Shown piece by piece: positions 191 through 49,376 of a stretch of 49,376 nt of DNA. Both the position numbers and the translations under genes were made by a program. How positions within the stretch are numbered: the stretch's first letter is position 1; each line of letters starts with the position of its first letter. Source of the DNA: a virus (taxonomy: Duplodnaviria > Caudoviricetes); IMG/VR virus record IMGVR_UViG_3300030606_000010, positions 1 through 49,376 of that record; one strand, given 5' to 3'. The notes beneath the pieces were generated by a model, which was not told where the DNA came from, ran no database searches, and saw nothing but the letters and a program-made list of their open reading frames with translations.

Positions 191-520
191 TCACCCACCC
201 AACCCAAGGATGAAAAGCGGGGCACTGAACCCACCCCCAGGATCAACGTCAGCCAGACTGATGATGATCGTGTTTCCTGTTTGCGTGATAACGATACCAG
301 CTCCTGCCTGGATGATGATGTTGCCAGTGATCTCGGGGTAGGTGTCAGCATGAACCGTCGTCGCGAGGATGTCCTCCGGATCGACCCAGGAGCCGCAACC
401 GTTCGCCTGGGCTTGGATCATCTCGCCCAGCGTGCCGAAACAGATCTGCTCCGGAGCCACCTGCGCCTGGGCGATGCCGCTGAACCCCAGGAATGCCACG
501 GCGAGAAGAAGACGCCTCAT
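191..520 (-). CDS. Small signal-peptide protein in tail-fibre region (109 aa)
   Basis: ATG at 520 overlaps the upstream TGA (ATGA). MRRLLLAVAFLGFSGIAQA-QV is a Sec signal with an AQA cleavage site; beta-rich ITGNIIIQAGAGIVITQTGNTIII segment. Confidence 0.8.
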   Translation of the reverse strand: MRRLLLAVAFLGFSGIAQAQVAPEQICFGTLGEMIQAQANGCGSWVDPEDILATTVHADTYPEITGNIIIQAGAGIVITQTGNTIIISLADVDPGGGFSAPLFILGLGG

Positions 521-30061: not shown

Positions 30062-30441
30062 CAGGGCACCAGGACGCTGGCCGAGTCGGACTTGGACCCT
30101 GAGGCCTCGTGGACGCACTGGAAGACGTAGGGCAAGGGGTCTGACGGCAGGACAAGTGTGAAGGTTGTACCGAAGAGCGTCGAGCCGACGTTGCCGCCGT
30201 CGACACTCAACTTGTAGATGCAGCCGCCGCCGCAGCTCGCATGCTGCTGAGGCGAGCAGGACACCTCGATCGTCCCGTTCGTACCGATGACACCGCCTAC
30301 GTAGCGGGCCTGGATATCCACGAAGAACAGGAAGTCTTCGGGCGTGAGGACCGGCGGGATGACCGGATCGTCCTCCCACCACTCGCACGCCGAGAACGTG
30401 AGCACCAGCATGGCCGCGACCAGCAGAAGCAGTCGCTTCAT
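30061..30441 (-). CDS. Putative lipoprotein
   Basis: MKRLLLLVAAMLVLTFSAC lipobox; beta-rich mature region with four further Cys. Confidence 0.7.
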   Translation of the reverse strand: MKRLLLLVAAMLVLTFSACEWWEDDPVIPPVLTPEDFLFFVDIQARYVGGVIGTNGTIEVSCSPQQHASCGGGCIYKLSVDGGNVGSTLFGTTFTLVLPSDPLPYVFQCVHEASGSKSDSASVLVP

Positions 30442-32432
30442 GGCTTCACCCCCACCCCGAGGATCGAGTACTTCTCGCCCTCTTGGTCATCAACGATTTG
30501 GATCTGCTCGAAGCCTGAGCGCTTGAGCAGGTGTAGTAGTTGCGGCTCATCGAAGACCCGCACGTGGTCCTCGTTGTAGCCACCCTGTTCGTCGTACTTC
30601 TTCGTGGGCACGTAGGCCAGGATGCGCCCGCCGGGCTTCAGGATGCGCAGGATCTCTCGACAGGTCCAGTCGGGGACAGGGAGGTCTTCGAGGTTGTGCG
30701 AGGTGAGGACCCAATTGTAGCTGTCCGTGGCGTAGGGCAAGCGCTCGCGCACGTCGCCGGTCTTGTCGGCCCACATGTAGGGCGTCCTGTCGAAGGTATC
30801 GCCGAAGCCCCTGTCCAAGCCGCAGGCCAGGTTAAGGCCTCTCGCGCCGAGCATGAGGCGCTCCCAAAGACCCGGGCTCTTTGACACCTCGGAGGGCATC
30901 GTCTTGCGCCAGCCCGTGACCTTCTCGATGGCCTGAAGGACGTGATCGGCGCTCAGCTCCGTCATACACGGGGCCGAGATGCCCGTGTGGACGTCTATCC
31001 TCAGGCGCGCACAGCCGGAGTAGAGACGCGGCTGTGGGCCTTCGAGGTGGCAGCCAAGGCAGGCCAGGTGCTCGGCACGTACCGGCTCGGCGAAGGCTCG
31101 CTCAACGATGACCCGCTCGGGAGGCACGGCTCCAAAGAGGACGACGGCCGGCGTCCGCATGGCGTAGGCCAGGTGCGCCGGGAAGGAGTCGACGCCAACG
31201 AAGAGCTTGGCCCCACCGATGAAGGCACCGACTCGACGGAATCCCACTTTCCTTAGATCGATGTCCCCGATCATCGGCGTGAGTTGATCGCCCACGACAC
31301 CGATGGGACCAAGGCTCCTCGCTCGCAGCTCGAAGATAAGCATCTCCCAGAAGTCTCTCGGTGCGTCCTTGCCGGGCCAGCCCGTGAACCCTGGGTGGAC
31401 GATAACCTGCGGCACCTCGTCACCCTGGGCCGGTGCCAGGAGCTTCTCCTCATCGGTCAGGTAGAGCTCCGGCATCCTGAGTGGGATGGGCTGCGGCACG
31501 CCGATGGCCTGGGCGTAGGCGATGGCGATGGGCACGTTCGGCCGCGACTCGTAGGCGCCATCGAGGTCCACGTAGTCGGCGGGGCCAGCGAGGTCAGATA
31601 CCGGCAGGATGAGCGGATTGTTCTCGAAAAGCTCTGGCCACGGGGTATCCGCGTAGAGCTTCCAGTGCGGTACCCTGTCCGCCACGATGCGGGCCAGTGC
31701 CGTCAACTGGAAGACGTCGCCCCGGGCCGCCTTGCGGCTCACAACGATGCGGCGCTTGAAGCCACCACGGATGACGTGGCCCCAGCGGGCCAGGAGCCGC
31801 ATGTTGTTGATAGTCGCGAGGCCCTTGATGTCGATGATACCTTCGGCCTCGACGACCTTCGACGTCACGGCCCGCTCGTGCTGGTAGCCCGGCACGTCGA
31901 CTTCAACCACCTTCCAACCCAGCTCACGGATGCGTAGGCAGAAGTCCGCGTCCTCGGCATAGGCGAAACGGAAGGTCTCCGTGTCGAAGCCGCCCATCTT
32001 CATGAAGAGATGCTTCGGGACCATCATGCACGAGCCTTCGATGTAGTCGATGCGCTCGCCAGCCGCTCCGTCGCCTGTTTGCGTGAGCGTGCGGCAGCCG
32101 CCCTTTGGTCCTGTCACCCCCACCCGAGGGATGGTAACGAAGGGCTCGAAGAGCGCCTCGAGCCAGCCAGGGCCGACCACCGCATCCGAGTTGAGGAAGA
32201 CGATGTAATCCGTGTCAGCCTTGGCGGCGAGCCTGTTGGCGGGCTCGCTGAAGCCGAGGTTCTCACTGGAATACCAGATTCGTGCAGCATCGACTCGTTG
32301 GACGAGGGCTTTAGTCCCGTTAATCCATACGATCACATCGCAATCATCGCCTGCGGCGCTGATGGAATCACAGCAACGTTCGAGAAGCTTCTCATCGCCG
32401 TAGTGAACGATGCAGACCGTGAAGAGCTTCAC
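30438..32432 (-). CDS. Fusion of GT2, GT9 (heptosyltransferase-like) and SAM methyltransferase domains
   Basis: NLGFS..AN, FLNSD, IEGSCMM, GGFD..F..EDAD (GT2); ARGDV, HPG..WPGK, FVGVDSFPAHLA (GT9); LNLACG, SHNLED, RILKPGG (methyltransferase). Confidence 0.85.
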   Translation of the reverse strand: MKLFTVCIVHYGDEKLLERCCDSISAAGDDCDVIVWINGTKALVQRVDAARIWYSSENLGFSEPANRLAAKADTDYIVFLNSDAVVGPGWLEALFEPFVTIPRVGVTGPKGGCRTLTQTGDGAAGERIDYIEGSCMMVPKHLFMKMGGFDTETFRFAYAEDADFCLRIRELGWKVVEVDVPGYQHERAVTSKVVEAEGIIDIKGLATINNMRLLARWGHVIRGGFKRRIVVSRKAARGDVFQLTALARIVADRVPHWKLYADTPWPELFENNPLILPVSDLAGPADYVDLDGAYESRPNVPIAIAYAQAIGVPQPIPLRMPELYLTDEEKLLAPAQGDEVPQVIVHPGFTGWPGKDAPRDFWEMLIFELRARSLGPIGVVGDQLTPMIGDIDLRKVGFRRVGAFIGGAKLFVGVDSFPAHLAYAMRTPAVVLFGAVPPERVIVERAFAEPVRAEHLACLGCHLEGPQPRLYSGCARLRIDVHTGISAPCMTELSADHVLQAIEKVTGWRKTMPSEVSKSPGLWERLMLGARGLNLACGLDRGFGDTFDRTPYMWADKTGDVRERLPYATDSYNWVLTSHNLEDLPVPDWTCREILRILKPGGRILAYVPTKKYDEQGGYNEDHVRVFDEPQLLHLLKRSGFEQIQIVDDQEGEKYSILGVGVKP

Positions 32433-32563
32433 TGCGGCCAGGCCTGAAGGAGCATGGCCATAGCGATGAGGCCCACAGCGAATGAGACGAAGCGAATGCG
32501 CTCGACAACGCATCCGATGCCAGCGGATATGACCGCTATCAGAAGAAGGGCGAAGACGATCAT
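32429..32563 (-). CDS. 44-aa two-helix membrane protein, holin candidate
   Basis: ATGA-coupled to the endolysin; two hydrophobic segments. Confidence 0.5.
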   Translation of the reverse strand: MIVFALLLIAVISAGIGCVVERIRFVSFAVGLIAMAMLLQAWPQ

Positions 32564-32895
32564 TGGACCCCCTGCCACTCGAACGAGTAGTGGTTCCCGT
32601 CCGGCCTTGTGAAGTCGCCGCCCCAGCGGGCAAGCGGATGGAGCGTCTTCCAGTACTCGCCGAGCGGACGATGGCTCTCGCTGTCGCGCTGGTAGACGCC
32701 GTTTATGAAGAGGTTCAAGTCCTGGGCAAGCCGGTAGACGTGGGTCGAGCGTGGGTGGCCACCAATGAGGTTGTTGACCTCTGGGCTGCGGTAGCTCCAG
32801 GCCAATGTCACGACCCACCCTTGCGAGTAGGCGTTTATGATTAACTTCGACAGCGCCCTGGCGAACTCGCCCTGAAGTATGACCAGATCACTCAT
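32560..32895 (-). CDS. Endolysin, M15-family (L-Ala-D-Glu type) peptidase
   Basis: YRS, STH..RLAQDLNLF, WGGDF..PDGNHYS motifs. Confidence 0.85.
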   Translation of the reverse strand: MSDLVILQGEFARALSKLIINAYSQGWVVTLAWSYRSPEVNNLIGGHPRSTHVYRLAQDLNLFINGVYQRDSESHRPLGEYWKTLHPLARWGGDFTRPDGNHYSFEWQGVQ

Positions 32896-33107
32896 TGCAC
32901 GTTCTTCGCTTTCCGCTTTGTCGGGAGTTGCCTGAAGAGGGCAGACAATTGAGCTTTAAGCTCGAGCGTTGCCTCGTCGAACTCCGTGTCAAGAACGCTC
33001 AATTCAGATGGCTCGATACCGACGAGCAACCGCTGCGTCTCGGCCATGGCGAACCGCATCTCAATTTCCATGGGACTACGATTCCTCGTCAGGCGATCTT
33101 TCGCCAC
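32892..33107 (-). CDS. Small hypothetical protein
   Basis: GAGG RBS; coupled to the endolysin. Confidence 0.5.
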   Translation of the reverse strand: MAKDRLTRNRSPMEIEMRFAMAETQRLLVGIEPSELSVLDTEFDEATLELKAQLSALFRQLPTKRKAKNVQ

Positions 33108-33459
33108 GGCGCCTCAATTCGCGGAGCTGCTCATTGATCTTGGTGAGCTGGACGAGCATGCTACGAAGCTGGTCCTCTCGCCGCTCCCACATGCTCCTGA
33201 GCTCTCCGAGTTGGCGGTTGAGATCGTCTCGCGGCACATACCCGGAGAGCTGCTGTCTCAGAAGGGAAAACTCGCGAGTCGCCTCCCTGCTCTGCTCAGC
33301 TATCTGCACCCTGAGGTTGCTGACTGCGGTATCGAGCTTGTCTTGAGCTTCTTGCAGTGGTGACGTCATGTCCCCGCGCACATTGCGATGCACCCCATAC
33401 AGAACGCCGACCGCCACGATCAAGCCGACGACGATCTGCACCCACACATCGGGACTCAA
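33076..33459 (-). CDS. Single-TM coiled-coil protein (holin/antiholin or i-spanin candidate)
   Basis: N-terminal TM VWVQIVVGLIVAVGVLYGV then coiled coil, upstream of the endolysin. Confidence 0.55.
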   Translation of the reverse strand: MSPDVWVQIVVGLIVAVGVLYGVHRNVRGDMTSPLQEAQDKLDTAVSNLRVQIAEQSREATREFSLLRQQLSGYVPRDDLNRQLGELRSMWERREDQLRSMLVQLTKINEQLRELRRRGERSPDEES

Positions 33460-33472
33460 GGTGCCTCACCGC

Positions 33473-36003: not shown

Positions 36004-39000
36004 CTACCTGCCGGCCGTTGTCAAGCTTGGTGACTGCCTCAGCTCCATGAGGAAGAGACCGATGAGGTAGAGCTGCTGGCGTTCGACCTCGTCGCGGGGT
36101 TTACCTTTGAGGGTCACTCGCGCGAACCGCTCGAGGGCCTGCTCGTCGCCGGTGTCGGCGATGCGCTGGAGGACCATCATGTCCTTGTCGAGCTGGCCCT
36201 GATACGTCCCTGTCGAGAAGGCCTTGAAGAGCTCGGCCTGGGGCTCTGGATCCGGTACCTCCCGGAGGTCGGCGGCGAGGCTCGCCTGAAGCGCCCTGGC
36301 CTTCTGCGGGTCGCGGCTCCGCATGACGTCCTCTATCTGGGCTCCATAGAAGCTGCGGCGCGTCTTGAGGAAGGTCGCCATAACGGCGGCCGCCGACTGC
36401 TCGTTGCCGGTCTCCCTGGCCGTGTCATAGGCCTCGATGAGCTTCTCGCGCAGGCCCTCGAGCTGGTAGAGATCGCGCTTGGCCTGCGTCGAGAGTGAGG
36501 CCGCGAAGCGCCCGATGAGCGGATTGCTCCTGGCGAAGACCTGACCCCTGACCACGGCCGGCGTCACGCCTTCCCAGCTCTGGGCCGTCATGTGATCGGC
36601 GATCTCGGTGGGCGTTGCGCGCCGGCCCTCCTCGCGGCTTCTGGGTGTGCCGTGCTCGATCATGGAGGCGATGGCGCCCTGCCTGGCCTTATCCGCTACC
36701 TCGGCCTTGCGGCTCATGGAGCGGACGAGGATCCTCTCGGCAACGTCCTCGGTCGGCGTGAGGCCGATGGCCTGGGCGAGCTCGTTGCCGCGCTGGGTAA
36801 TTGTGCCGACACGACCCCGCCTGACGGTTGCGCCTTCAGCCAAGCGCGAGCCGCGCACGAGGTCGCGCATCATACCCGACGTTGCCAGGATCCTGTCGCC
36901 CGGCAGCTCGACGTAGTTCTCGCGGGCCGAGGGACGGAACTGGATGGACTCCCCAAGGACGCCCGCGTAGCTGGCCATGCCCGAGGCGCCGGCATCCTCG
37001 AAGAGCTGAGCCAGACTCACGAGGCCCTTGCCCGGCAGGTTCGCCACGGCCTGAGCGCCAGGGTGAGCCATGGCGGCGCCAGAGACACCCCAGCGGCCGA
37101 CGTCCGATGACTTGACCTCCTGGCGCAGCTCCGCGCGCGGCGCCTGGGCCTGTGCCTGGGCCGCCTCCGTCACGGGGACGCCCAGGCGCTCGGCCATGTA
37201 GCGCGCCTGCTCGGCGGCCTCGGAGACACCGGCGTGGATCTCGACGAAGGGCGCCACGGGGGGCCCGCCCAAGACGGCCATGATGCGCTGACCGATGGTC
37301 TGGTCGGACTTACCTGCCGTGAGTCCCGAGAACGGCAGGTTCGGCTTCAGGCGTCCGGCAACGTCGACGCCAGCGGCAGGCCCAGCGCCCGCCCAGACGC
37401 CATCCTTCGTCTCGAAGTCGATGAGCGCCCGCTCCCAATCCTCTCCTGTCTTTGGCGCGACAAAGCCGACTGTGTCGATGGCCCACTCGATCATCGGCAG
37501 CGCGCGCGGCCCGCCGATGGCATAGAGCATCCCCAGGAAGGCCAGCTTCTGACCGAAGCTCAGGCGCTGCGCGAACATCTCGATCTGGTGGCGGCTGAAG
37601 TCCAGGAACTGCGTGGCGCTCTCGGCCCAGGGCGCATACTCCTGGATGAAGACGGGCCTGTTCATGCGGTTGTAGGTGCCCTGCGTCTCCTGCATCGCCG
37701 CGACCGCACGGTCCTTGATCCAGCGCGTCGGGTCATCCGAGGCGAGCGCTTCCCGGATGCCGCGCTCCGGGTCAAACCACGCCTTGGCCTTGTCGAGGTC
37801 TCCGGCATCCGACGCCTCGAGCGCCTTGAGCCTTGCGAGCGACGCCTCGTCCAGCATGCCGGGACCAACGTCACCGCCGGCCGCGACGGCGCGCTCCATC
37901 TCTGGAATGCGTGCCCTGAGCGTCTTCCAGTCGGAGATGAGGTCCCGCTCGGTGGGAGCTATCCAGCCATCGTAGAAGGCGCTCGAGATCTTGCCTGTTG
38001 TCCGGAACTCCTCGAGAGCATCGAAGCCCCTGAGCGCCTGAGCGTAGAAGGTGGCGCCCCTGTTGACGCCTTCGGTCGAACGGAACATTACTCCGGCCGC
38101 CTCAAAGGCCGCCTCTTCCGCACCCTTGACCATGCGCCTCAGAAGACCAGGATCGAGATCGCCCTCACCGAGCTCCCACCAGTGGATGTTTATGCCGGCG
38201 ACAGCCTCATCGTAGAGCGGGCGAACGTGGCTCAAGCCGCGCCCATAGATGGCGCCTGCGTCGGCAAAGAACCCCTGCATGCCAGGAATGTTCCTCATGG
38301 CCTGCCCGGACATGCCCTGGTCATAGAGGAAAGCCGCAAGACCCCTGGGCGTGTCCTTGGGTCGCATCCTAAGAGCTGTGTGCAGGGGGATCGTCGTCAG
38401 GTTCACGAGCGCTGTCGAGGCCCGGCCGCCAATGTGCATCATGAAGCCGACACGCCTCGCGAAGTGGCTCACCTGGTCAAGCAGGTGGCTGTCGATGAGC
38501 TTGGCTACGGGGCGGCCGAATGGCCGCTGCATCGTCTCGGCCACGAGCCGCCTGAAGGCCGTGTTCATGGCGCCCGGCGGCTCCCAGAGCGCGCGCCTTC
38601 CCTCGACGAGACGGTCGATGACATTGGCGAAACGCTCGGACTTGATGACGCCCGTCTCGGTCAGGCGCCCGCCTGCCCGCTCGATGGCGCGGTTCCAGTG
38701 CGGCAGCGTGTCCTTGAGGAATCGGTAGCGCGCGGCCTGGGCCTCGGCCATGCCGAGCATCTTCTCTGGGTCCTTCACGTAGTCGAAGACCTTGTCCAGC
38801 CGCTCCTCGAGTGGCCCGTAGCGGAGCATCGAATCCGGGATCCAGTCCTGGTCGTAGGCGTTGAGGTAGCGCACCTCGCTTTTGGCCCAGAGATCCATCT
38901 CGCGTTCGAGCGTCTTGACGACCGCTGCGTCTCCGGCCTTCCGCGCTTCCGTGATCTGGCTTGCGATGAGCTTTCTCACCCCGGCCGAGTTGTGCAGCTT

Positions 39001-42000
39001 GTAGTGAGCGAAGTAGTCTCGCAAGCGCCTGAAGACCGGCACCTGAGCGTGGTCGGCAACGCGCTTGGTCGCATCCTGGATCATGGCCGTGTACTTCTTG
39101 ACGGCCTGGGCGCGCGGCGTCTGTCCGTCGAGCACCTCATCGAGCCACTGGCGCGGGATGGCGGCGGCGTCGTTCTCGAGGAGCCTGCCGGCAAGGAAAC
39201 GGTCCGTGGGGTCGGACAGGAGCCTGCGCCTCAAGACCCCTTGCTGCATCGAGCGCTCCGCGAACCTGAGCTTCGATTCGACGTTGACGATCGTGCGCGT
39301 CGCCAGCTCCTGCCGCATGCCGAGGCTTCGCGGAATGGAGTTGAGCGGCGAGCGAAGGGACCGCGCAATGGCCTTCCAGCGCGTGACGCCGCTCAGCTCC
39401 TTGTCCATTCGAAGCAGCTCCCCCGAGTCCATGGCGTCGCCACCCCAGGCCGCCTCATGCATCCTTGGGCTATTCGGTCCGATTGGCGCCTCCGGCGGAA
39501 TGGCCACGGACCAGCCAGGGTCCTGCGACAGCCTGAACTCGGCCCTCGCTATGGCCTCCGTCTTGCCCTCGTTGATGCGAGCCGCAGCGACATAGGTCTC
39601 CTCACCGATCGCGTAGCGCGCCATCTCAGGCGACGAGCTTGACCGGGCCGCGAGCGCTGTCACCTCATCGAGACCGAGCTCCTGCTGGGCGCGGCCCGCC
39701 CGCTCGAGAGCCTGCTTTTCGGCCTGCGTGATAGCACCGTCCAGCTCGAGCGCCTTCTGCCTCAGGGCCATCATCTCCGGCGCGATGGCGTCCATCTGAG
39801 CCTGAAGAGCGTCGATGGCCGCGTCGTCCCGCCGGCCAAGGGCATCCCACATGTCGCGGTCGAGCCCTTGCAGCCGCTCTGAGAGCTGCATGCGACGCCC
39901 CTGCACGTCGCCCAGCTCGACAGCCGCCTCGAGCCGGCCATTCTCGAGGGCGTGGAGCTCGTCGGCGGCGAGCTTGGCCCTGACCATGGGGTTGGCTTCG
40001 TACTCGGCCCTGAGCGCCTTACGCAACTCGAAGGCCTGCTCCTGCATGGCCTGGATGGCAGCGCCGTGCTGACCGGGGGCGACACCTGTCGGCTGGACGG
40101 CATCAATCCCCACGCGCCTCAACTCGGCTCTGAGCACGGCCTGCGGATCCGGACCGAAGAGGAACTCCCTGGTCGCCTCCAGCGAAACAGCCTCACCCAC
40201 CTCGGCCCTGAAGCGCGCCACGGCCGTGTCCTCGGCCGCGCGGACCTGAGCGTTGACCGTCTCCTCGGACTGCCCGGTCAGCTTGCGGGCGATGGTCCCG
40301 GCCGGTGTCTCCGCCGGCACGGCCGGGTGCTTGTGCCCATGGCGCACGAGGTTTTCGGCCTCGGCCGGCGAGACCGTGTGGAGCGGGATGCCCTTGACTT
40401 CCACCGGCTGTCCGGCCTTGGCCGGGTCGCGGACGGCGTAGCCGGGCGGTGGGATGTCCGGTTGGACAGGCCTGTAACGTCGTTCGACCGGGTCGTAGTA
40501 GACCTCGCCCTTGAGCATCCGCTGCCGGAGCACGACGGGCGCCGGCACTTGCTGGCCCTCGAAGCGGAAAAACCGTGCCCGCTCGGGCAGCTCGGCCGAG
40601 ATCTCGTCGAGCGTCTGGCGCAGCGCCTGGGCGGCGTCCTGGACGGTCGGGAACTTCCTGGGCTTGGCGGCGCGGACGGTCCTGGCCGCCTCGATGAGGA
40701 TGGACTTCCTGGCCAGCTCATCGGCATGACCCGAGAGCGTCCCGGCCAAGGTCGTTGCCTCAAGGTGAGTCAGGCCAAGGTCGGCCAAGCGCGTCTGAAC
40801 CATCCTGAGGTGGTCGGTCGTGAGACCGGAGATGGCGGCCAGCTGCTCGATGGGCTGCCCTTCGAAGCGGATGCCGAGCTTCCCGACCTGGGAGCGCACC
40901 AGGAAGGCCTCCTCATCGGCCAGAGATGCCCCTGGTAGCGCCCTTCCAAGGTCGCCGGCACCTTGGGCCGCCGTGCGCGCGGCCGCCCCCCTGGCGGCCT
41001 TGGCTTGGTCCAGGAGCGCCCTGGCCGTGGGCACGAGGTCCGCCCCGTTGACCGTGCGGCTCGCCACTTCCTGGCCGCCGATCGTGAGCTTCACGCCAGC
41101 AAGGCCCGCGTAGTCTGACTGCAAGCCCCCGGCCGAGAGCACGGTCAGCTGACGCGGGTTCTTCCTGGCTAGGGTCCGCACGAACTCGTCCGGGGTCTTA
41201 CCGAACTCAGCCAGACTCCGGAGGCCCGGAATAGGGCTCGAGCGCAACCCCTCTTGGATGGCGCCTACGAGCTCCGAGTCGTAGATGAGCCTCACGCGAT
41301 CCTGACCCTTCGGCAGATCGGCCACGTTGATGGTAGCGACCGTGAGCCCGCGCTGCTTGAGGGCTTCCTTCTGGGCTGTCGATAGCTCCCGGCCGACAAT
41401 CGTTGCCGCCTTCTGCCGGGTGGAGGCGAGCATTACCTCGGAGTCGAGATCGTTGGTCGAGACGAGCTCGACGAGCTGCTCACGCTCGCGGGCCTGCGCA
41501 CGCTCAAGGCGCTGAATGCGCGTGCCGAAATCGGAAGGTACGGCATCGCCGAGGGCGGCCTTGAGGGTCAGCCCCTCCTCCGGCGAGAGCTTGAAGAGCC
41601 CTCGCTCGACTGTCTTTTCGAGGCCGTGCTTCTCGACGTAGGCAGCGAGCACGTCCGGGTTGCCGCCCTTCTTCACGAAGGCCGTATCCTCGAGAGCGTC
41701 CACCCAGGCTGCGACGTGGCTCGGATCGATCGATTCCTTCGATGCCCTGAGCGTTGCCTGCGCGAACTCGCTCGCCTCATTGGCGGCCTCACCCAGGAGC
41801 TGGCGCCTGACAGCACGACTGCCCTTGAGCGCGCGCGCGGCTGCAAAGAGGCCGCCCTTGACCGCGAGGCTCGCGAGCGCCCCGGCCGCATCTGGGTCGA
41901 TGAGCGAGTAGATCTCGGTCGCAACTTCCTGGCCGACACCCTCCTCGGGATAGAGCACCTGGGCCGCCTTGCGCTCCGTCACGTCCTCGGGACCAAGGAG

Positions 42001-42678
42001 ACCCAGAGAACGCGAGAGCTCCTGAGCCTCCTTACGGCGAGCCTCCCACGCCGCACGGCCCTGGGCCTCGGCAGCTACAGGGTCTTCGCCGACCATGGCG
42101 CCCAGAAGCCCCGTCCCGCCTTTGAGCGCCCTGAAGCCCGTCTCCTCGAGCCCGGCCACGAGAGCCGAACTGCCCCGCTTGAGAGCCTCGCCGGTCTCTT
42201 TGGTCGGCAGCTCGGTCATCGTCAGCGGCTCAGGCTGAGTAAGGGCGGCGAACGGACTCAGCCCCGCCAGGCCCTCGGCCAGACGGCGCTCGCGCTCCTC
42301 GGCCGTAACGCGCTGACCTTCCTGGACGCTAGGCGTTTTGGTCAGCTCATCCATGGCCACCGTCAGGGCCGGGAATATGGTCGTCGTCGTCTGGGCCAGC
42401 TCACCCAGAGACGGCAGGCTGGCCATGGCGCGGCGCTGGACCTCCGGGTTGAGAAGCGGGGCCAGGCCAGGTGGGGCAAGGGCGCCAAGAGTGAAGTCAG
42501 CCGCCTTGCGGGCCAGGCTGGGCCCTTCCCCTTCCGGCTCACGTCCGGGCAGCGTGATGCCGATCGGTTCACCACGAAGGAAGCGCGCCATGGCCTGGCG
42601 CTTCTCTTCCTGGGTCAGGTCAAGCCGCTCGGAGAGGAGCCTCTGCAAGAGGCCTGCGCGCTCGAAGTCTCCGAGCAC
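36004..42678 (-). CDS. Very large internal virion (DNA ejection) protein, 2224 aa
   Basis: Largest gene, Ala-rich and helical, last of the ejection-protein series as in T7/P22-like podoviruses. Confidence 0.65.
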   Translation of the reverse strand: MLGDFERAGLLQRLLSERLDLTQEEKRQAMARFLRGEPIGITLPGREPEGEGPSLARKAADFTLGALAPPGLAPLLNPEVQRRAMASLPSLGELAQTTTTIFPALTVAMDELTKTPSVQEGQRVTAEERERRLAEGLAGLSPFAALTQPEPLTMTELPTKETGEALKRGSSALVAGLEETGFRALKGGTGLLGAMVGEDPVAAEAQGRAAWEARRKEAQELSRSLGLLGPEDVTERKAAQVLYPEEGVGQEVATEIYSLIDPDAAGALASLAVKGGLFAAARALKGSRAVRRQLLGEAANEASEFAQATLRASKESIDPSHVAAWVDALEDTAFVKKGGNPDVLAAYVEKHGLEKTVERGLFKLSPEEGLTLKAALGDAVPSDFGTRIQRLERAQAREREQLVELVSTNDLDSEVMLASTRQKAATIVGRELSTAQKEALKQRGLTVATINVADLPKGQDRVRLIYDSELVGAIQEGLRSSPIPGLRSLAEFGKTPDEFVRTLARKNPRQLTVLSAGGLQSDYAGLAGVKLTIGGQEVASRTVNGADLVPTARALLDQAKAARGAAARTAAQGAGDLGRALPGASLADEEAFLVRSQVGKLGIRFEGQPIEQLAAISGLTTDHLRMVQTRLADLGLTHLEATTLAGTLSGHADELARKSILIEAARTVRAAKPRKFPTVQDAAQALRQTLDEISAELPERARFFRFEGQQVPAPVVLRQRMLKGEVYYDPVERRYRPVQPDIPPPGYAVRDPAKAGQPVEVKGIPLHTVSPAEAENLVRHGHKHPAVPAETPAGTIARKLTGQSEETVNAQVRAAEDTAVARFRAEVGEAVSLEATREFLFGPDPQAVLRAELRRVGIDAVQPTGVAPGQHGAAIQAMQEQAFELRKALRAEYEANPMVRAKLAADELHALENGRLEAAVELGDVQGRRMQLSERLQGLDRDMWDALGRRDDAAIDALQAQMDAIAPEMMALRQKALELDGAITQAEKQALERAGRAQQELGLDEVTALAARSSSSPEMARYAIGEETYVAAARINEGKTEAIARAEFRLSQDPGWSVAIPPEAPIGPNSPRMHEAAWGGDAMDSGELLRMDKELSGVTRWKAIARSLRSPLNSIPRSLGMRQELATRTIVNVESKLRFAERSMQQGVLRRRLLSDPTDRFLAGRLLENDAAAIPRQWLDEVLDGQTPRAQAVKKYTAMIQDATKRVADHAQVPVFRRLRDYFAHYKLHNSAGVRKLIASQITEARKAGDAAVVKTLEREMDLWAKSEVRYLNAYDQDWIPDSMLRYGPLEERLDKVFDYVKDPEKMLGMAEAQAARYRFLKDTLPHWNRAIERAGGRLTETGVIKSERFANVIDRLVEGRRALWEPPGAMNTAFRRLVAETMQRPFGRPVAKLIDSHLLDQVSHFARRVGFMMHIGGRASTALVNLTTIPLHTALRMRPKDTPRGLAAFLYDQGMSGQAMRNIPGMQGFFADAGAIYGRGLSHVRPLYDEAVAGINIHWWELGEGDLDPGLLRRMVKGAEEAAFEAAGVMFRSTEGVNRGATFYAQALRGFDALEEFRTTGKISSAFYDGWIAPTERDLISDWKTLRARIPEMERAVAAGGDVGPGMLDEASLARLKALEASDAGDLDKAKAWFDPERGIREALASDDPTRWIKDRAVAAMQETQGTYNRMNRPVFIQEYAPWAESATQFLDFSRHQIEMFAQRLSFGQKLAFLGMLYAIGGPRALPMIEWAIDTVGFVAPKTGEDWERALIDFETKDGVWAGAGPAAGVDVAGRLKPNLPFSGLTAGKSDQTIGQRIMAVLGGPPVAPFVEIHAGVSEAAEQARYMAERLGVPVTEAAQAQAQAPRAELRQEVKSSDVGRWGVSGAAMAHPGAQAVANLPGKGLVSLAQLFEDAGASGMASYAGVLGESIQFRPSARENYVELPGDRILATSGMMRDLVRGSRLAEGATVRRGRVGTITQRGNELAQAIGLTPTEDVAERILVRSMSRKAEVADKARQGAIASMIEHGTPRSREEGRRATPTEIADHMTAQSWEGVTPAVVRGQVFARSNPLIGRFAASLSTQAKRDLYQLEGLREKLIEAYDTARETGNEQSAAAVMATFLKTRRSFYGAQIEDVMRSRDPQKARALQASLAADLREVPDPEPQAELFKAFSTGTYQGQLDKDMMVLQRIADTGDEQALERFARVTLKGKPRDEVERQQLYLIGLFLMELRQSPSLTTAGR

Positions 42679-42684
42679 GGAGCG

Positions 42685-43722
42685 CTACCTGCCTTGCTGC
42701 ATGGCCTGAGCAGCAAGACCCTGGATTCTGGTAGCGAAGACCTCGATCTGCATCGGCGTCGGAGGCGGGCTCTGCGAGAGGAACTCCTCCATCTGAGCCA
42801 AAAGCTCCTGAGCATCCCTTGGGGCGAAGACCGACAAGACATTGACGGCCTCACGAGCCTTATCGAGCCCCTTGGCGCTCGTCGCCGGCTTGCCGCCACC
42901 CTCCATCGCCTTCACGGTCCCAGCGTAGGAGCCACCCGCCCGAGCCGCGCTCTTCTTCTCTTCGATCGCGAGGTAGCGCGCGAGGGTCTCAGGATCCATC
43001 TCCATCACGTTGGGAGACTGGTCACGCTGGAGCTGCTTCTGGCGGCCGAAGATGATGTCCTGCTGCTTACGGAACTCGTCCACCTTCCGGCCCGACTCGA
43101 TTCCGTAGAGCTTCTGCCCGGCGGGGCTCTCGATGAGACCAAGTTCCTCGGCCAGCTTCTCCTCGGGGCTCTTCGCGCGGGCTGCTTCCAGGTACTCGGG
43201 CGGGAGCCCCAGGGCTTCAGCGAAGCCTGGCGGCATACCCCTCCCGGTTCCAAGGATCTTCTCGGCGAGTCCGGCCAGAAGACCGCGCTGGCTCGTCTCC
43301 TTGGCACGACGCTCCGATTCGCCGGCTGCCGCCTGAGCCTGACGCTCGTCGAGCAGATCCTGGAAGAGCGACCACTTGCGCTCGTCGGCCTTCTGGGCGA
43401 GCTGCGCCTCCTGAGCGCGCAGGTAGTCTTCGAGTTGCTGTTGGCGGCCACGACGCTGAACGGCACCCGGAACGAAGGCCCCAAGGATGTGCTTGAGCCG
43501 ACCCCAGAAGCCCTCGTGCTTCATGCGGTCCAGCTCCTCGCGGACGGACTCCAGGTCTTTACGGTCCTGGCCGAGGCTGCCGCCGGTCAGATCGATGCCA
43601 AGCGCCTGACCCAGTCCGTAAAGCGGATCGGCTGAACGGCTCGAGCCGAGGTCAAGATCCTGAAGGAGGTCCGTCCCCGGATTCGCTCCCGATAGAAAGG
43701 GTACCCGCATCAAGCCTGGCAC
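42685..43722 (-). CDS. Putative ejection protein
   Basis: GGAGG RBS; helical, Gln/Glu/Ala-rich; synteny. Confidence 0.55.
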   Translation of the reverse strand: MPGLMRVPFLSGANPGTDLLQDLDLGSSRSADPLYGLGQALGIDLTGGSLGQDRKDLESVREELDRMKHEGFWGRLKHILGAFVPGAVQRRGRQQQLEDYLRAQEAQLAQKADERKWSLFQDLLDERQAQAAAGESERRAKETSQRGLLAGLAEKILGTGRGMPPGFAEALGLPPEYLEAARAKSPEEKLAEELGLIESPAGQKLYGIESGRKVDEFRKQQDIIFGRQKQLQRDQSPNVMEMDPETLARYLAIEEKKSAARAGGSYAGTVKAMEGGGKPATSAKGLDKAREAVNVLSVFAPRDAQELLAQMEEFLSQSPPPTPMQIEVFATRIQGLAAQAMQQGR

Positions 43723-44026
43723 TGAGATCCTCCATCAGCTCACCCACCGTGCCGCGCTGAGCGAGCGAAGGTGCGAAGCGCTGCAAAGCCTCCTCGGCCG
43801 CCTCTGGTCCCATGAGCTCCGGAAAGGCTGGCGTGTACGTAAGGCCCAGCTCGTGGCCTATTGCCGCCCTCCTGTCACCAGAGATGGCCGACTGCGAAGC
43901 TTTGATGAGAGCCTTGAGCATCGGCGTGTTCCCGAGGCTTTCCGGCTCAGCCGCCACGTCACCCAGCCAGCGCGATTCCGGCTTTTGGTTTCCGAAGAAG
44001 CTGACAGCTGGACTACCCAAAGCCAA
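43652..44026 (-). CDS. Hypothetical protein in the ejection module
   Basis: Coding-like codon usage; TTG start uncertain. Confidence 0.5.
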   Translation of the reverse strand: MALGSPAVSFFGNQKPESRWLGDVAAEPESLGNTPMLKALIKASQSAISGDRRAAIGHELGLTYTPAFPELMGPEAAEEALQRFAPSLAQRGTVGELMEDLSARLDAGTLSIGSESGDGPPSGS

Positions 44027-44086
44027 TACCCATGCTACTCATGAAGGCCGCCCAAAGCCCATACCCATGCTACTCATGAAGCCGCC
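44016..44086. repeat. Imperfect ~35-bp tandem duplication at a gene junction
   Basis: CCCAAAGCC(A/C)ATACCCATGCTACTCATGAAG(G)CCG occurs twice. Confidence 0.85.
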
Positions 44087-44863
44087 GATATTCGCCAGGC
44101 CCTGGGTGAACGGTAGGAAGCCGCTGGTCCGCTGCGTTGTCGTCGTCGGCGTCATGCTACCGAAGTTGACGGCGTATGGGCTGAAGGCCTTCATGAACTC
44201 GAGCGGCGCCATTTGGCGCTCGAGGTTCAGCCGACCCCAGGCAGGTCCGGCGCTCGCGTTGGCCGCAGCCAGAGCGCCCGAAGCGCCGATGCGAGCCGAC
44301 GTCGTCTGAGCCGACGCTCCGATACGCACCTGCTCGAGTGCAGTATTGAGCTGGGCGATAGCCTCGTCGCGCGCCTCCTTGCGCTTCTGGAGATCCAGCT
44401 CGAAGTCCTTGCGGCCCTCAGCCTCGGCCTGAGCTCCCTCCATGCGGCGCTCGCGGAACGCCGAGAGTGCCCGGCCACCGAGCCCTCCGACACGCGCCGC
44501 CTCCATCTCGAGCTGGCGCACGTCGTCTTCGGTCCCAGCCCGGATGCCGCGCTTCGACCGCATGAGACCGGCCTGGACGTAGGGATCGCTGAAGTTCAGG
44601 GTGGCGAGATCGACCGGCCCACCCATGTAGGAGCCGCCACCGTAGATGCCTCCACCCCCACCGCCCCCACCCCCGCCGCCTCCACCCCCGCCGCCGCCAC
44701 CGCGAAGGCCGCGCAGCGAGCCACGCAAGGCGCCCAGCATCTCTTGCCCGAACTGCGATCGCTGGCCCTGACCGATGCCGGCCTGAGAGAAGAAGTCAAC
44801 GACCTGAGGATCGAGCCTGGTGTCGCGGAAGCCACCAACAGTTGTCGTCTGCTTCGAACCCAT
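44039..44863 (-). CDS. Putative ejection / pilot protein, Gly-rich
   Basis: MGSKQTTT N-terminus, poly-Gly run, coiled coil, C-terminal TTTT..SG and Gly-rich hydrophobic tail. Confidence 0.6.
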   Translation of the reverse strand: MGSKQTTTVGGFRDTRLDPQVVDFFSQAGIGQGQRSQFGQEMLGALRGSLRGLRGGGGGGGGGGGGGGGGGGIYGGGSYMGGPVDLATLNFSDPYVQAGLMRSKRGIRAGTEDDVRQLEMEAARVGGLGGRALSAFRERRMEGAQAEAEGRKDFELDLQKRKEARDEAIAQLNTALEQVRIGASAQTTSARIGASGALAAANASAGPAWGRLNLERQMAPLEFMKAFSPYAVNFGSMTPTTTTQRTSGFLPFTQGLANIGGFMSSMGMGFGRPS

Positions 44864-44864
44864 T

Positions 44865-45410
44865 TCACCCCCACTCGATCTCGGCGACGAGCTTGGCCCA
44901 CTTCTTCCTGAGCTCCCGCCAGGACGCTCCGAGCACCAGTATATCCTCGCGCTGCCCGGCCCTCAAGGCATGCCCTGAAAGCCTACCCTCTTCCTGGAAG
45001 CCCACATAGCGGGACAGCCCCTCGAGCCCTGGTCTGACCATCGTCCAGAATCGCTCGACACCCAAGAGATCCCCGAGGTATGCAGCTACGATGGTCAGAC
45101 CCCTCAGGGCCACCATGCCGCATAGCGCATCATCAACACCGTGTATCGGCATCAAATGCAGTGCGGCCCGCCTCTGCACGAGGTCGAAGTCCGTCATGTA
45201 AATCGCGCACGACTGGACCTGGGCCAACCCAGTCGCAACGAACATCTGGCAAGTCTGCGGCAGCTCGACGAACTCCTGGCCATCGACCCACAAGCGCGGC
45301 GGCCCGCCATGCTGCCCAGCCGCCCTAGGCCCCTCGAAGAGCGAGATGTACTGCACCGGACATGGGCTGACCGGCGTCACGGACGTGCTCCTGATGGAGC
45401 CAAGGATCAC
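44865..45410 (-). CDS. GNAT-fold protein preceding the ejection genes
   Basis: 'YVGFQEEGRL..HA..G..EDILVLG' RimJ/RimL-like C-terminus; position comparable to T7 gp13. Confidence 0.55.
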   Translation of the reverse strand: MILGSIRSTSVTPVSPCPVQYISLFEGPRAAGQHGGPPRLWVDGQEFVELPQTCQMFVATGLAQVQSCAIYMTDFDLVQRRAALHLMPIHGVDDALCGMVALRGLTIVAAYLGDLLGVERFWTMVRPGLEGLSRYVGFQEEGRLSGHALRAGQREDILVLGASWRELRKKWAKLVAEIEWG

Positions 45411-47320
45411 GGGTCAACCGCCGTCACCGGGTCCACGCCGGGCGTCGCCGTGATTGTCGCTGTCCACGCATCGGTGGTGTCATCTTCCTTCTCGACAGTG
45501 AGGGTCGTGCCGCTGATGTGCCACCTGTTCCTGAGGAACCTCAGCGCATTAAGCACGGAACGTGCGGACTCGCCACTCACTGAGGTCCAGTCGCGCTTGA
45601 GCAGCTCGTCGGCGTTCTCCGTGGCGGTTGGCACCGCCGCTATGTCGTCCGACACGGTGACGGCCGGCGTCCCGAGACGACTCTCGAGGTCGTCTACGAA
45701 GTCATCCACGACGGCGACAGCCGCAATGAGGGCTGCCGTGTCAGCCAGGATGGTCGTGAACGGAGGAGCTTCTGACACGCCAATCGCTGAAGCGGCAATC
45801 TTCTGATTCGTGATGAAGTTGTCGGCGACGGCGGCGTTATCAATGGCACCAGCGGTGAAGTCGCCGACCTCGATGCCGGTCGTGGCGATCTCGACACCGC
45901 CGGTCGTTGTGACTGGATCGGTCTGGGTGCCCGACATGGAAAGACGGAAGCGAATCTCTTCCTTCTCTCCTGAAGTCCAGTCGGTCGCTCCAGCCCCGCT
46001 CGGTGCTTCCTCCAGAGCATTGGCCGTGAAGCGCTGCGTTCCGCCATCGTCCTCGGTCAGTTCGGCGTAAAGCGACCCAGCCGCCGGAGCTGAGAGCGAA
46101 GCCGAGAGCAACTCACCAAGGCGATAGGCAGCGAGTCTCGCGAAAGAATCCCCGGTCTGCGGGACAGTCGTGCCGCCAGTCGAGGTTATGTTGGCCGCTC
46201 CGGTCAGCTCGCGTGTACCCACAGCCCAGACGTCGGCCGCTGTGTGCGTACTGAATCCTGTGGCCGTGATCCAGGCAGCGTCACCACGGGCACGCAGCGC
46301 CTCGAGCGAGTCGTCCGTGCGCGCAAAGCTCCAGGCTGTGCCGTCGTCGAAGAGCTGGCCGAAGACGGAACCGAGAGCGACACCCGTCGAGAGCGTAACG
46401 CTACGATGCGTGAGACCGCTCAGGACAAGGCCTGCCGTGTCTGCGGTACCGTGCGCGGCCACAATGTCCTCGTCCCAAACGCCATCCACGATATCGGCCA
46501 CGGTTAGGCTCGAGCCACCTGCGTTGTCGACGATCTCCTTGACCACCGAACCGGCAACGGCAGCCCCGTAGACCGTGCCGCTATCGGTATCAAACAAATC
46601 GGCGAGCGCCAGCGCAGTCAGGCCGCCGATCTTACCCAAGACCGACCCAACCGATCCAGACAGATTGCCAGTGATATCCATGGTCTGGTTCGGCAGATCG
46701 ATCGCGGTCAGGTGGTCGCCGGTCCCGCCGGCCTCTGTCAGGCCAGCGCCCGCCGCGCCGATGCGCGCGAAGCTGTCGCCGGTCTGGGGCGTATGCCCGG
46801 TCAGGGTCGTCACGGTCGCGACAGTGTCCGCCGTCGGGTCGAAGTAGCTGGCCGCCGCGAGCGTCCGGCCTTCGATGTAATCAGTCGCATCGACAGTCTC
46901 GATGGTCGCGACGTCATAGCCGGTCTTGTCGGACACGACGTTGGCATCCACCTCCGCCTCGAGCTGGAACGTATGCGAGGTCGTACCTGTCACGCTGTTT
47001 ACTGCGGCGCTCACGTATACGGTATAGCTCTTGCCCTTCTCGAAGCCGTTGGCCGCGCTCAGGGTTAGCTGCTCGGAGTAGAAGCCAGCCGTGTTGGCGT
47101 CGTCCAGAAGCGCCATGCTGCCGGTCAGGATGGCGGTCCCGGTCTCGTCCTCGTAGACGCGATAGCTCGGGACCGAATCCGCATCTGTCGCCTGGCCTGT
47201 GTCGAAGCGGTGCGTGTTCGCGGCGAAGGTGAGGAGGTCGTCGATCTTCCAGCTGCCGAGGTAGGCGGCGTGGGCTGCGGTGGAGAACAAGCAGAGCAGA
47301 ACCGTGAGCAGCTTTCTCAT
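45407..47320 (-). CDS. Signal-peptide-bearing tail-fibre-like protein (637 aa)
   Basis: GGAGG RBS, ATGA overlap; MRKLLTVLLCLFSTAAHA-AY; Thr/Ala/Gly/Asp-rich; repeated PQTGDSFAR and IVDGVWDE/ADVWAV helical motifs. Confidence 0.75.
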   Translation of the reverse strand: MRKLLTVLLCLFSTAAHAAYLGSWKIDDLLTFAANTHRFDTGQATDADSVPSYRVYEDETGTAILTGSMALLDDANTAGFYSEQLTLSAANGFEKGKSYTVYVSAAVNSVTGTTSHTFQLEAEVDANVVSDKTGYDVATIETVDATDYIEGRTLAAASYFDPTADTVATVTTLTGHTPQTGDSFARIGAAGAGLTEAGGTGDHLTAIDLPNQTMDITGNLSGSVGSVLGKIGGLTALALADLFDTDSGTVYGAAVAGSVVKEIVDNAGGSSLTVADIVDGVWDEDIVAAHGTADTAGLVLSGLTHRSVTLSTGVALGSVFGQLFDDGTAWSFARTDDSLEALRARGDAAWITATGFSTHTAADVWAVGTRELTGAANITSTGGTTVPQTGDSFARLAAYRLGELLSASLSAPAAGSLYAELTEDDGGTQRFTANALEEAPSGAGATDWTSGEKEEIRFRLSMSGTQTDPVTTTGGVEIATTGIEVGDFTAGAIDNAAVADNFITNQKIAASAIGVSEAPPFTTILADTAALIAAVAVVDDFVDDLESRLGTPAVTVSDDIAAVPTATENADELLKRDWTSVSGESARSVLNALRFLRNRWHISGTTLTVEKEDDTTDAWTATITATPGVDPVTAVDP

Positions 47321-48708
47321 CGCACAACCCCTCCTCCGATGACCGGCACACCGCCACCACCACCTCCGGCCGGTTCCTCGCGCTGGAACGCGCCGAGATC
47401 TATGTAACTCTGACCGGCGTGTAACGTTCCCGGCGCACCGATCGCCTTCATGTTCGCGCCGACCTCGAAGTTGTTTCCAGCGGCATCGACGTACTGCGGG
47501 TCCAGCACCGTTACTAGATCGTGCGCATCGTCGTCCATCAGCGAAAGGCATGCTGTCGTGTTGTTGTAGCAGTTGGTGGCTAGCAACACGTTAGCCCCGC
47601 CGGAACTCGATGTCCCGCCGACAAAGCCTACGGTGCCGTTGTTGGAGGCGATGTTGTTGACGTAAAACGGCTGCCGCGTGTTGTTCAGCTGCCGAAAGCC
47701 CGCGTCGCCGTTCCCATCCGCCGTGCAGTTGATAGCTTCGTCGATCAGCTCGAACCCGTTTCCCGTGTTGCCTTCGGAGATGGTGAAGCTTACCTTCAGG
47801 CCACCCGTGACATTGAAGCCATCGCCGCCATTGTCGGCAGCCACGCATCCATGGCATCGCTGGATAGCGCTGGAGCCGCCGTCCGTCTGGAACCCAGCGC
47901 CGGTGTTCACCATTGACTCACAGTCTATGTAAGCCGTATTAAAACTATTCGCCAACCGGAACCCGGCGCCGCCACAGGCGCTTGCCTGCACGTTGAACCA
48001 TGTGACACTGTTGACGCCGGTGTTGTTGAAGCAGTGCGAGGTCGCGCCTGTCGCCCTAAGGTGGGCGAAGTAGTTGTACTGGTGGCCGACTACAATGCAG
48101 TTCGCCCGCGTACTCTCTCCGTCTATCAGGGGCCGATCCGTCCCCGCTGGGGCGTCGCCATGACTGGACAGGTAGCCACGCCACTGGATCCATAGCTGGC
48201 GCGACGAAGCCGCCACAGTCGTGGTGAGCGTCTCCGTGTAGGTGCCGCTCTTGATCCAAACGATGTGGTTATTGGCGACCAGCGCCGCAACCTTGGTCAG
48301 CGTCGCTAGGCCTCCACCCATCGCACCGGCGCATGTCTGCCCGCTGGTTCCGAGCGCACGATCAACCGTCCAGCGGTTGTTCCCCACGTCGGCCGCCGTG
48401 ATCTCGTAGAAACCGGCCGTGCAGTCGCCGCTCGTGGCCTGGAACAGATTACCTACATCGTCCGCCGAGACGGTGTAGTCACCGGAATCAACGTTCAACT
48501 GCGTGGTCGTCGTATGAACTGCGGAGGCGGTCGTCAAAGTCGCGAAGGCCGCGTCAGCCTGTGAACGATCGACTCCGGCGGATGCTGTGTTGAAGCCGCC
48601 ACCGTTGCCGTCGTTGCCCGTCGTCCTGACCTCCCACTCCGTGTCATCAGACAACGCTCCTGTCGCAACTCTGGTGCAGAGCATCAAGAGTAGGATAAGG
48701 CGCTTCAT
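47317..48708 (-). CDS. Signal-peptide-bearing right-handed beta-helix (tailspike-like) protein
   Basis: GGAGGAG RBS, ATGA overlap; MKRLILLLMLCTRVATG-AL; IVWIKSGTY cap and repeated N.G.GF rungs; C-terminal DLGAFQ. Confidence 0.8.
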   Translation of the reverse strand: MKRLILLLMLCTRVATGALSDDTEWEVRTTGNDGNGGGFNTASAGVDRSQADAAFATLTTASAVHTTTTQLNVDSGDYTVSADDVGNLFQATSGDCTAGFYEITAADVGNNRWTVDRALGTSGQTCAGAMGGGLATLTKVAALVANNHIVWIKSGTYTETLTTTVAASSRQLWIQWRGYLSSHGDAPAGTDRPLIDGESTRANCIVVGHQYNYFAHLRATGATSHCFNNTGVNSVTWFNVQASACGGAGFRLANSFNTAYIDCESMVNTGAGFQTDGGSSAIQRCHGCVAADNGGDGFNVTGGLKVSFTISEGNTGNGFELIDEAINCTADGNGDAGFRQLNNTRQPFYVNNIASNNGTVGFVGGTSSSGGANVLLATNCYNNTTACLSLMDDDAHDLVTVLDPQYVDAAGNNFEVGANMKAIGAPGTLHAGQSYIDLGAFQREEPAGGGGGGVPVIGGGVVR

Positions 48709-49376
48709 TCAGTCTCCTCCGGAACGTCCCCCTGAAAGTACAGGCTGGCCGCGAGGCTTGGTTGATTGCTGCTGGTAAGCCAGACGTTGCGGAGGTTGCA
48801 GCCCATGAATTCATAGCCCGTGAAGTCCTGGACTGGACACCACAGCTCCCACGTCGAGCTGGCGCCGTTCCGGCCAGGCGACCTGTCGAATATCCAGGCC
48901 GCACCGTTCGTGCCGGTCACGCGATAGATGCCGCGCGTCACGTCAGTGGCTGGAGCTATGCGCACGAGACAACCGATGTCCGCAGACGTGACAGCGTGGC
49001 CTACCGGCGTGCCGCGCCCAGCAGCTCCGATGTTCAGCACATCGGACCCGACCTCGCGCCAGAACGCAACCGTATCGCTCCACAGCTGCGAGAAGTTCCC
49101 GTCCTGGATCGTTAGCGGCGGCGGCGGCAACAGCACCCGGTGCCATGCGTAGTTACGCCGCGTGGCCTCGTAGTGGACCGTCCCGCGATGCCACCGCTCA
49201 GAGTGATAGTCCTCGGGTGCGTACCTCGCAGTCACGAGCGGACCGCCACTACGATCGGTCCGAATCTCTGGCGGTCGTGGCGCCGGCGTCGGGGTAGGGG
49301 TCGGTCTCGGGGTCGGGGTGGGTTCCGGCTCTCGCTGCCCCCATACATTGAACGTCACCGCGAGCACCAGGATTGC
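48705..49376 (-). CDS. Signal-peptide protein with Pro/Thr linker (228 aa; starts at 142 across the join)
   Basis: EPEPTPTPRPTPTPTPAPRP linker; 'SADIG.LV.I......G.Y.VT.....W..DR..G' domain shared with 47317-48708. Confidence 0.8.
   Translation of the reverse strand, partial: AILVLAVTFNVWGQREPEPTPTPRPTPTPTPAPRPPEIRTDRSGGPLVTARYAPEDYHSERWHRGTVHYEATRRNYAWHRVLLPPPPLTIQDGNFSQLWSDTVAFWREVGSDVLNIGAAGRGTPVGHAVTSADIGCLVRIAPATDVTRGIYRVTGTNGAAWIFDRSPGRNGASSTWELWCPVQDFTGYEFMGCNLRNVWLTSSNQPSLAASLYFQGDVPEETE
49250..49376. repeat. Terminal direct repeat, right copy (circularisation overlap)
   Basis: Identical to 1-127. Confidence 0.95.

Follow-up and report, generated by a model that had tools for sequence, protein, structure and literature searches.

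Predicted Sec leaders on four consecutive tail-region genes of a soil phage suggest a possible export route for virion appendages

The genome described here, IMG/VR virus record IMGVR_UViG_3300030606_000010 (Duplodnaviria; Caudoviricetes), is a stretch of 49,376 nucleotides (nt), hereafter the window, and represents a circularly assembled phage genome of 63% guanine–cytosine (GC) content with a 127-nt terminal overlap, found in soil metagenomes. Four consecutive genes in the tail region of its minus strand, designated D, A, B, and C in gene order, each encode a protein that begins with a predicted Sec-type leader. Judged from their sequences, these leaders are real and selected; the mechanism they would serve is still a proposal. 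Tailed virions are taken to be built wholly in the cytoplasm, export being reserved for proteins that serve lysis or modify the host. The best reading of the evidence, and one towards which we incline with modest confidence, is that the four proteins undergo Sec export and cleavage, fold outside the cytoplasm, and dock on finished virions at lysis.

Gene D (520-191) encodes 109 amino acids (aa), with a predicted leader at residues 1–19 and two mature cysteines. Gene A runs from 142 across the join of the circular genome to 48705 (1..142 and 48705..49376) and encodes 228 aa, with a predicted leader at residues 1–18 and three mature cysteines. Gene B (48708-47317; 463 aa) has a predicted leader at residues 1–17 and 11 mature cysteines, and gene C (47320-45407; 637 aa) a predicted leader at residues 1–18 and no mature cysteine. 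Leaders were called by a rule-based signal scorer built on a basic n-region, a hydrophobic h-region, and small residues at positions −3 and −1. Each of the four contains two basic residues among its first five, an 8-residue hydropathy peak of 3.1–3.5, and small residues at −3 and −1; neither a twin-arginine motif nor a lipobox is present, and by this scorer all are of the Sec/signal peptidase I type. Given the 1,304 possible starts in the window, the scorer accepted 18; it accepted 46 of 8,000 composition shuffles and none of 1,137 internal pseudo-starts. Four leaders in a row are far beyond chance. Among the head, portal, adaptor, nozzle, E, and downstream proteins, none passes. An earlier reading of the DNA by eye (the sequence-only reading) had described this run of four signal peptides, and the N-termini it quoted are present and all pass. 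It had also noted that three of the genes are masked in the list of open reading frames, as is indeed the case: in that list D begins at 628 and C at 47551, and A is broken into two.

The starts of D, B, and C each form an ATGA overlap with the stop of the upstream gene, and GGAGG-type motifs precede the starts of A, B, and C. The two ends of the window carry a 127-nt direct repeat (1-127 duplicates 49250-49376). A join artefact or sequencing error was considered and rejected: a second assembly (L111; 49,420 nt) passes through the join with no mismatch to the circularised window over 13,889 nt and has the four genes consecutive, protein P0243 is a complete A, and contigs from other soil work (three studies) carry the start of B (X4) and that of C (X5 and X6) with zero or one differing letter.

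Most relatives of B and C lack a leader and begin where the window leaders are predicted to be cleaved. For B, 148 homologues were found and 120 listed; 111 of the listed proteins start with a methionine at the position just before Ala18 of the window protein, and seven have a leader. Two listed homologues were dropped by an automatic rule, and in one of these (P0098) a leader is present by eye. For C, 1,412 homologues were found and 119 non-self proteins listed, six of them without a match to the N-terminal domain (N-domain); 107 of the 119 start at the mature position, and six carry an extension, which in five is a leader. The N-domain of C is up to 87% identical to those of leaderless relatives. 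Because the starts of the leaderless proteins fall precisely on the mature N-termini proposed for B and C, the leaders resemble real cleavable Sec signals. The processed N-termini proposed for these two proteins in the sequence-only reading thus coincide with natural start sites; retention of the leader among homologues, the other point raised there, is seen in a minority only. This cleavage control covers B and C and does not extend to A or D; A has a single non-self homologue (P0244; 48% identity), which also starts with a short hydrophobic leader.

At the DNA level, 78 of 80 viral B loci gave a usable gene: 17 are extended, of which 16 pass the scorer, and 61 are unextended, of which none passes. 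Hidden upstream in-frame leaders in the apparently leaderless relatives were rejected, having been found at 0 of these 61 viral loci. In the structural model of B, the predicted local distance difference test (pLDDT) score is below 50 over residues 1–15. The leaders of B and C appear to be dispensable for the fold, with the mature domain probably beginning at the predicted cleavage site.

Leaders on neighbouring genes tend to occur together. In 66 dereplicated loci, 15 of 27 immediate neighbours carry a leader when B is leadered, compared with 2 of 89 when it is leaderless; at least one leadered neighbour is found at 12 of 14 loci of the former kind and at 2 of 52 of the latter. For C (42 loci), the corresponding counts of leadered neighbours are 4 of 7 and 2 of 60. 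On a fast, unrooted tree of the B N-domain (185 sequences), the distribution of the leader needs at least 10 changes, 7 of which are forced by well-supported branches, and the window B lies within a supported set of 74 rows, 72 of them leaderless. The simplest reading is that leaders were gained across four genes at once in the window lineage, gain and loss being inseparable on an unrooted tree. Four different leaders on adjacent genes, recurring across lineages together with a co-gained pair of cysteines, imply selection.

That pair lies in the N-domain of B. Both Cys96 and Cys126 are present in 8 of 22 leader-bearing B proteins, a group in which neither is ever found singly, and in none of 163 leaderless ones, 12 of which have Cys126 alone; the number of N-domain cysteines is even in 21 of 22 leader-bearing and 109 of 163 leaderless proteins. 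The pair fits a predicted disulfide that would form after export. The sequence-only reading had instead drawn on the roughly 11 cysteines of the putative beta-helix spike. The count is right for mature B, but the argument for disulfides built on it fails: total cysteine number was rejected as evidence, since full-length leaderless B proteins average 10.4 cysteines and leader-bearing ones 8.1. Across the compared sequences, the high cysteine content of B is a family trait unrelated to export.

The model of B as a monomer (pLDDT 88.9; predicted template modelling score 0.89) comprises an N-terminal beta domain holding Cys96 and Cys126, followed by a right-handed parallel beta-helix and a Gly-rich C-terminal tail, and the protein is spike-like. 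Its best structural match in the PDB is the pectate lyase Pel9A (expectation value (E) 2.7e-6; TMq 0.44), with phage depolymerases and tailspikes ranking lower. The N-domain has no PHROG or Pfam match, and leaderless relatives are about 30–43% identical to the window B. Both B (47317-47360) and D (191-230) end in a Gly-rich linker and a short hydrophobic tail, which may be a docking strand; of 167 full-length B proteins, 125 have GG among their final 25 residues, a count made without a control set. The setting of leaderless B genes was surveyed at 16 loci drawn randomly from 35, with 70 neighbour proteins scanned and one truncated second B copy omitted: within four genes, 9 of the 16 have PHROG matches to head, connector, or tail categories, and none has a match to a non-structural category. 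The window proteins thus come from families that occur in virion gene modules. A–D themselves are encoded in the morphogenesis operon and are putative virion proteins.

Protein A consists of its leader, a Pro/Thr linker, and a module related to the N-domain of B, as identified by a B-family profile match. C has a confidently modelled immunoglobulin (Ig)-like N-domain (residues 19–124), a low-confidence helical or repeat body, and a small C-terminal domain, and the model suggests a fibre- or whisker-like protein. A PDB sequence search with the C domain was empty. PF10651 (BppU N-terminal) gave no match on the window C; one relative has a sub-threshold match (E 0.008), and one is named BppU in UniRef. 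Gene E (517..1167, minus strand), adjoining D, encodes a short fibre of 216 aa with no leader, arranged as a conserved N-terminal region, a His-containing fibre repeat, and a C-terminal beta domain. Its central repeat recurs many times in long proteins, and a profile built from its family finds a weak match in gp42, the tail fibre of HFTV1 (E 0.0043). Atlas matches of E and D fell below the threshold for assigning a family. D has no Pfam or PHROG match, no dedicated homologue search having been made for it; an internal module matches P0246, a fibre without a leader (42% over 53 aa; pairwise E 6e-7), and its last 13 aa match the end of P0256, also leaderless (pairwise E 0.003). Both module and tail are embedded in leaderless proteins related to E, so that D resembles a fragment of this fibre family that has become separate and bears a leader. 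The modules common to D and these relatives are indirect evidence for docking through E, a candidate anchor for the exported parts.

Leaders are also found on other virion-type genes elsewhere. At locus L071, the domain that follows a leader is the N-domain of a tail protein (phrog_1640; E 3.6e-14). In a low-GC phage family, the protein homologous to the probable nozzle of the window (25% identity across 408 aa) is itself leader-bearing: 11 of 13 loci pass the scorer as called, some being near-identical, L166 is leadered by inspection, and L170 is ambiguous. In these phages (L084:14439-18385 and L159-L171), the anchor and fibre genes that follow the probable nozzle are mostly leadered, and the adaptor and ejection-slot genes are not. 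For a nozzle, a function at the cell surface is hard to imagine, which favours late completion of the virion. In leader-rich phages, leaders are also present on genes that directly follow the one for the major capsid protein, where decoration proteins are usually encoded (L088:5579-6349; L084:2718-4901).

Among cultured phages, Cellulophaga phage phi18:3 (KC821620, Pachyviridae) resembles the window in having three consecutive leader-bearing genes annotated as structural. All of gp085–gp087 pass the scorer and bear the GenBank note 'structural protein ... experimental MS/MS proteomics' (three of the 12 coding sequences so annotated in the stretch fetched), and gp086 and gp087 have PHROG links to pectate lyase and tail families. 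By analogy, phi18:3 may serve as a precedent for leader-bearing structural proteins in a cultured phage.

In the mechanism proposed here, A–D would be exported by Sec across the inner membrane and their leaders cleaved by signal peptidase I. The mature proteins would then fold in an oxidising compartment, B with a Cys96–Cys126 disulfide, and the appendages would build up outside the membrane as heads and core tails assemble inside. After membrane failure, the two would meet through non-covalent attachment to leaderless sites such as E, the adaptor rings, or the nozzle, with contacts possibly made by the Ig-like domain of C and, in B and D, by the Gly-linked C-terminal tails. At the next infection, the appendages would bind or cut host surface polysaccharide. 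P22 tailspikes or T4 long fibres can reportedly be added to finished particles in vitro. The sequence-only reading had interpreted the four products as receptor-binding parts that fold in the periplasm and dock at lysis; leaders of the cleavable Sec type, membership of virion families, and block-wise gain or loss now speak for it, and the disulfide argument from 11 cysteines has been given up. A broader proposition, which we regard as evenly poised between right and wrong, is that one stage of tailed-phage morphogenesis, unrecognised so far, takes place outside the cytoplasm: appendage genes in whole blocks, joined by the nozzle in certain podovirus lineages, would switch repeatedly between cytoplasmic and Sec-exported production, the virion would be completed only when lysis mixes the compartments, and host-recognition parts would gain periplasmic disulfides and possibly glycosylation.

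Several points weigh against docking of exported appendages. Fisher p-values for the co-occurrence of leaders are optimistic, as related phages share labels, and at L055 (10001-12909) and L076 (8972-11389) B is leadered and the adjoining genes are not, which suggests that export of B alone may also occur. Full homologues of B, C, or E were not found in any cultured phage. Because the best match of B is a secreted bacterial pectate lyase, a free enzyme fits as well. The Ig fold of C is generic; in a wide structural search, matches to phage collars did not stand above unrelated Ig domains. Parity of the total cysteine count was rejected as support (even in 12 of 20 leader-bearing and 66 of 147 leaderless B proteins; p 0.24), and C, with no mature cysteine, belongs to a family in which no cysteine signal is linked to the leader. 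Virion disulfides are, moreover, possible without export, putative ones being described in the accessible part of a report on the Bas63 connector (PMC12609058), and together with the cysteine-free C this means that disulfides are not the whole reason for export. The phi18:3 proteins gp085–gp087 have no detectable homology to the window proteins, contain 0, 1, and 3 cysteines, and come from a phage of a Bacteroidota host; their structural status is that given in the GenBank annotation, and no published remark on their leaders was found. Attachment after lysis must compete with dilution. Finally, the mechanism presumes a host with a periplasm.

Other explanations of the leaders differ in where the proteins end up. 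A–D may be exported and act on the infected cell or its surroundings, outside the virion, which we consider rather unlikely. In that case B would act as a polysaccharide lyase or lectin, free or held at the surface, for which A, C, and D would supply the scaffold; it would either clear capsule or biofilm for the progeny or mask receptors against superinfection. The resemblance of B to secreted Pel9A agrees with such a role, as does the Pro/Thr linker of A, linkers of this kind being typical of secreted modular proteins. Comparable cases appear in the accessible portions of three reports, on the halos produced by free depolymerases (PMC6116005), on Sec-signal genes of Porphyromonas prophages interpreted as host-surface modifiers (PMC10367356), and on phage-like fibres with signal peptides borne on the Bdellovibrio surface (PMC10769870). 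The location of A–D, however, argues for the virion: they lie between tail and ejection-slot genes, three of them joined by ATGA stop–start overlaps, and their leaderless relatives sit in virion modules. E is short, moreover, and no other long fibre gene occupies the tail slot. Nor does a cell-surface role readily suggest itself for the leadered nozzle homologue of the other lineage, and the leader-bearing proteins of phi18:3 are annotated as structural.

Alternatively, the leaders could be membrane anchors or transient tethers that hold the appendages at the inner membrane, where tails would be finished before lysis. Post-lysis dilution would be avoided, and the idea suits lineages with a leader on the nozzle, the structure that seals the DNA in P22 and T7. 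We nonetheless judge it improbable, given that short hydrophobic cores, basic N-ends, and small-X-small sites exactly at the start of the relatives make up the pattern of a cleaved signal, with the C-terminal part left outside. Still more doubtful is that the leaders are vestigial or bypassed, for instance through origin from a host secreted protein or use of internal starts, and that the working proteins are cytoplasmic. Most relatives being leaderless, the folds need no export, and B has an in-frame TTG at codon 19. This TTG, however, lies only 2 nt past AGGAG, and the mature ends of C and A lack any start codon. The selection implied by four distinct leaders on adjacent genes, recurrent in many lineages with the co-gained cysteine pair, also speaks against bypass, and the 87% identity of the C N-domain to leaderless phage proteins indicates a phage origin.

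The remaining gene map most likely describes a short-tailed phage, judged from the gene order of the minus-strand tail region: adaptors, probable nozzle, E, D, A, B, C, and ejection-slot genes. The major capsid protein (6401-7708), portal (8820-11033), and terminase large subunit (13062-15017) lie on the same strand, have PHROG matches, and are negative by the leader scorer. Two SU10-type adaptor genes without leaders occupy 3399..4744 (minus strand; PF24175, at E 2.5e-5 for one, slightly below the Pfam cutoff, and at E 4e-9 for the other). The likely tail nozzle (1167..3071, minus strand; 634 aa; no leader) matches phrog_511 (E 6e-8), its label following from position, and a PDB sequence search with it gave no match. 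Genes in the acetyltransferase/ejection-protein slot (36004..45410, minus strand) are labelled from position only, have no Pfam or PHROG match, and are scorer-negative. The flank labels 'nozzle', 'GNAT', and 'ejection' given in the sequence-only reading stand on position and weak PHROG matches, with no confirmation from Pfam or PDB sequence searches. Between the terminase and portal genes, two genes (11244-13060; 385 and 220 aa) have no Pfam or PHROG match.

A lysis-type region (29561..33459, minus strand) includes a protein with one transmembrane segment (33076-33459), an M15 peptidase (32560-32895), and, beside the latter, adjoining genes with lipoprotein- or signal-type N-termini (30061-30441 and 29561-30061). 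The single-segment protein is possibly a holin and the lipoprotein/signal-bearing pair possibly spanins. Around the lysis genes (28168-35386) are two multi-domain glycosyltransferase (GT) genes (GT4 with GT2; GT2 with GT9 and a methyltransferase) and a third GT-like gene without a Pfam match, which could modify the virion or host surface; a connection with the Pro/Thr linker of A is conceivable. A 72-aa gene in the early/middle region (16768-16986) has a signal-like N-terminus. Short adjoining genes at 17393-19488 contain common repeated segments (for example 17393-17803 and its neighbours; 18274-18735 and 19105-19488), which suggests local duplications. No tRNA gene was found in the window, and a promoter and terminator scan was at chance level. 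A genome scan for B reached six loci in assorted contigs of metagenome-assembled genomes, all with leaderless B, and no host was assigned. Scans with the nozzle and E for close relatives returned only the second assembly of the same genome and two partial matches; comparison with cultured phages gave no match for B or E and one 38-aa match for C.

The literature on signal peptides in phage virion proteins yielded no account of exported tail appendages, most subscription journals lying outside the search. If the proposal is true, the end of the assembly pathway would be coupled to the lysis sequence, the secretion and folding machinery of the host would become host-range factors, and phage genes with signal peptides would no longer be host-surface modifiers by default. 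The cultured phi18:3 makes the general idea testable now.

Known systems share parts of this arrangement. A 'processed' decoration protein is reported for phi24B (10.64898/2026.04.10.717836), export not being mentioned in the available portion of that text. The MAT fibres of Bdellovibrio are, according to the accessible part of their description (PMC10769870), phage-like fibre proteins that start with a signal peptide; in contrast to the proposed window appendages, they are cellular surface proteins and not virion parts, and they share a conserved beta domain of about 130 aa, accompanied in many members by an S74 chaperone. A Pfam scan of the window proteins gave no S74 or related match, no direct comparison with MAT sequences having been made. 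Ig-like collar or whisker proteins, such as the Bas63 and Sf14 connectors, XM1 gp40, and podophage GP4, have an Ig-like domain followed by a helical extension, as does C, for which Foldseek ranks the phage connector 9mt4 second and 9c39 eleventh at about 12% identity; export signals are not mentioned in the accessible part of the Bas63 report (PMC12609058).

The right-handed beta-helix of B is held in common with Pel9A and with beta-helix tailspikes and depolymerases (Klebsiella K64-1 S2-4, CBA120 TSP3, and Det7-like proteins), at 8–17% identity and a TMq of at most 0.44. Classical tailspikes assemble in the cytoplasm and dock via an N-terminal head-binding domain, whereas B has a leader and a Gly-linked C-terminal tail. 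In uncultured tailed phages, the leaderless families of B and C (P0003-P0122 and P0124-P0242; loci L001-L101 and L112-L158) comprise the same mature proteins, and at some loci (for example L003, L009, L120, and L131) B and C are adjacent, as in the window. These leaderless proteins differ in starting at the mature N-terminus, and those of the B family in having the Cys96–Cys126 pair in 0 of 163 cases. The locus is a clean natural experiment: nearly identical domains are found both with a leader and lacking one, and a single cysteine pair accompanies the gain of the leader. The window proteins are members of widespread phage families, and the proposed export route is the new part.

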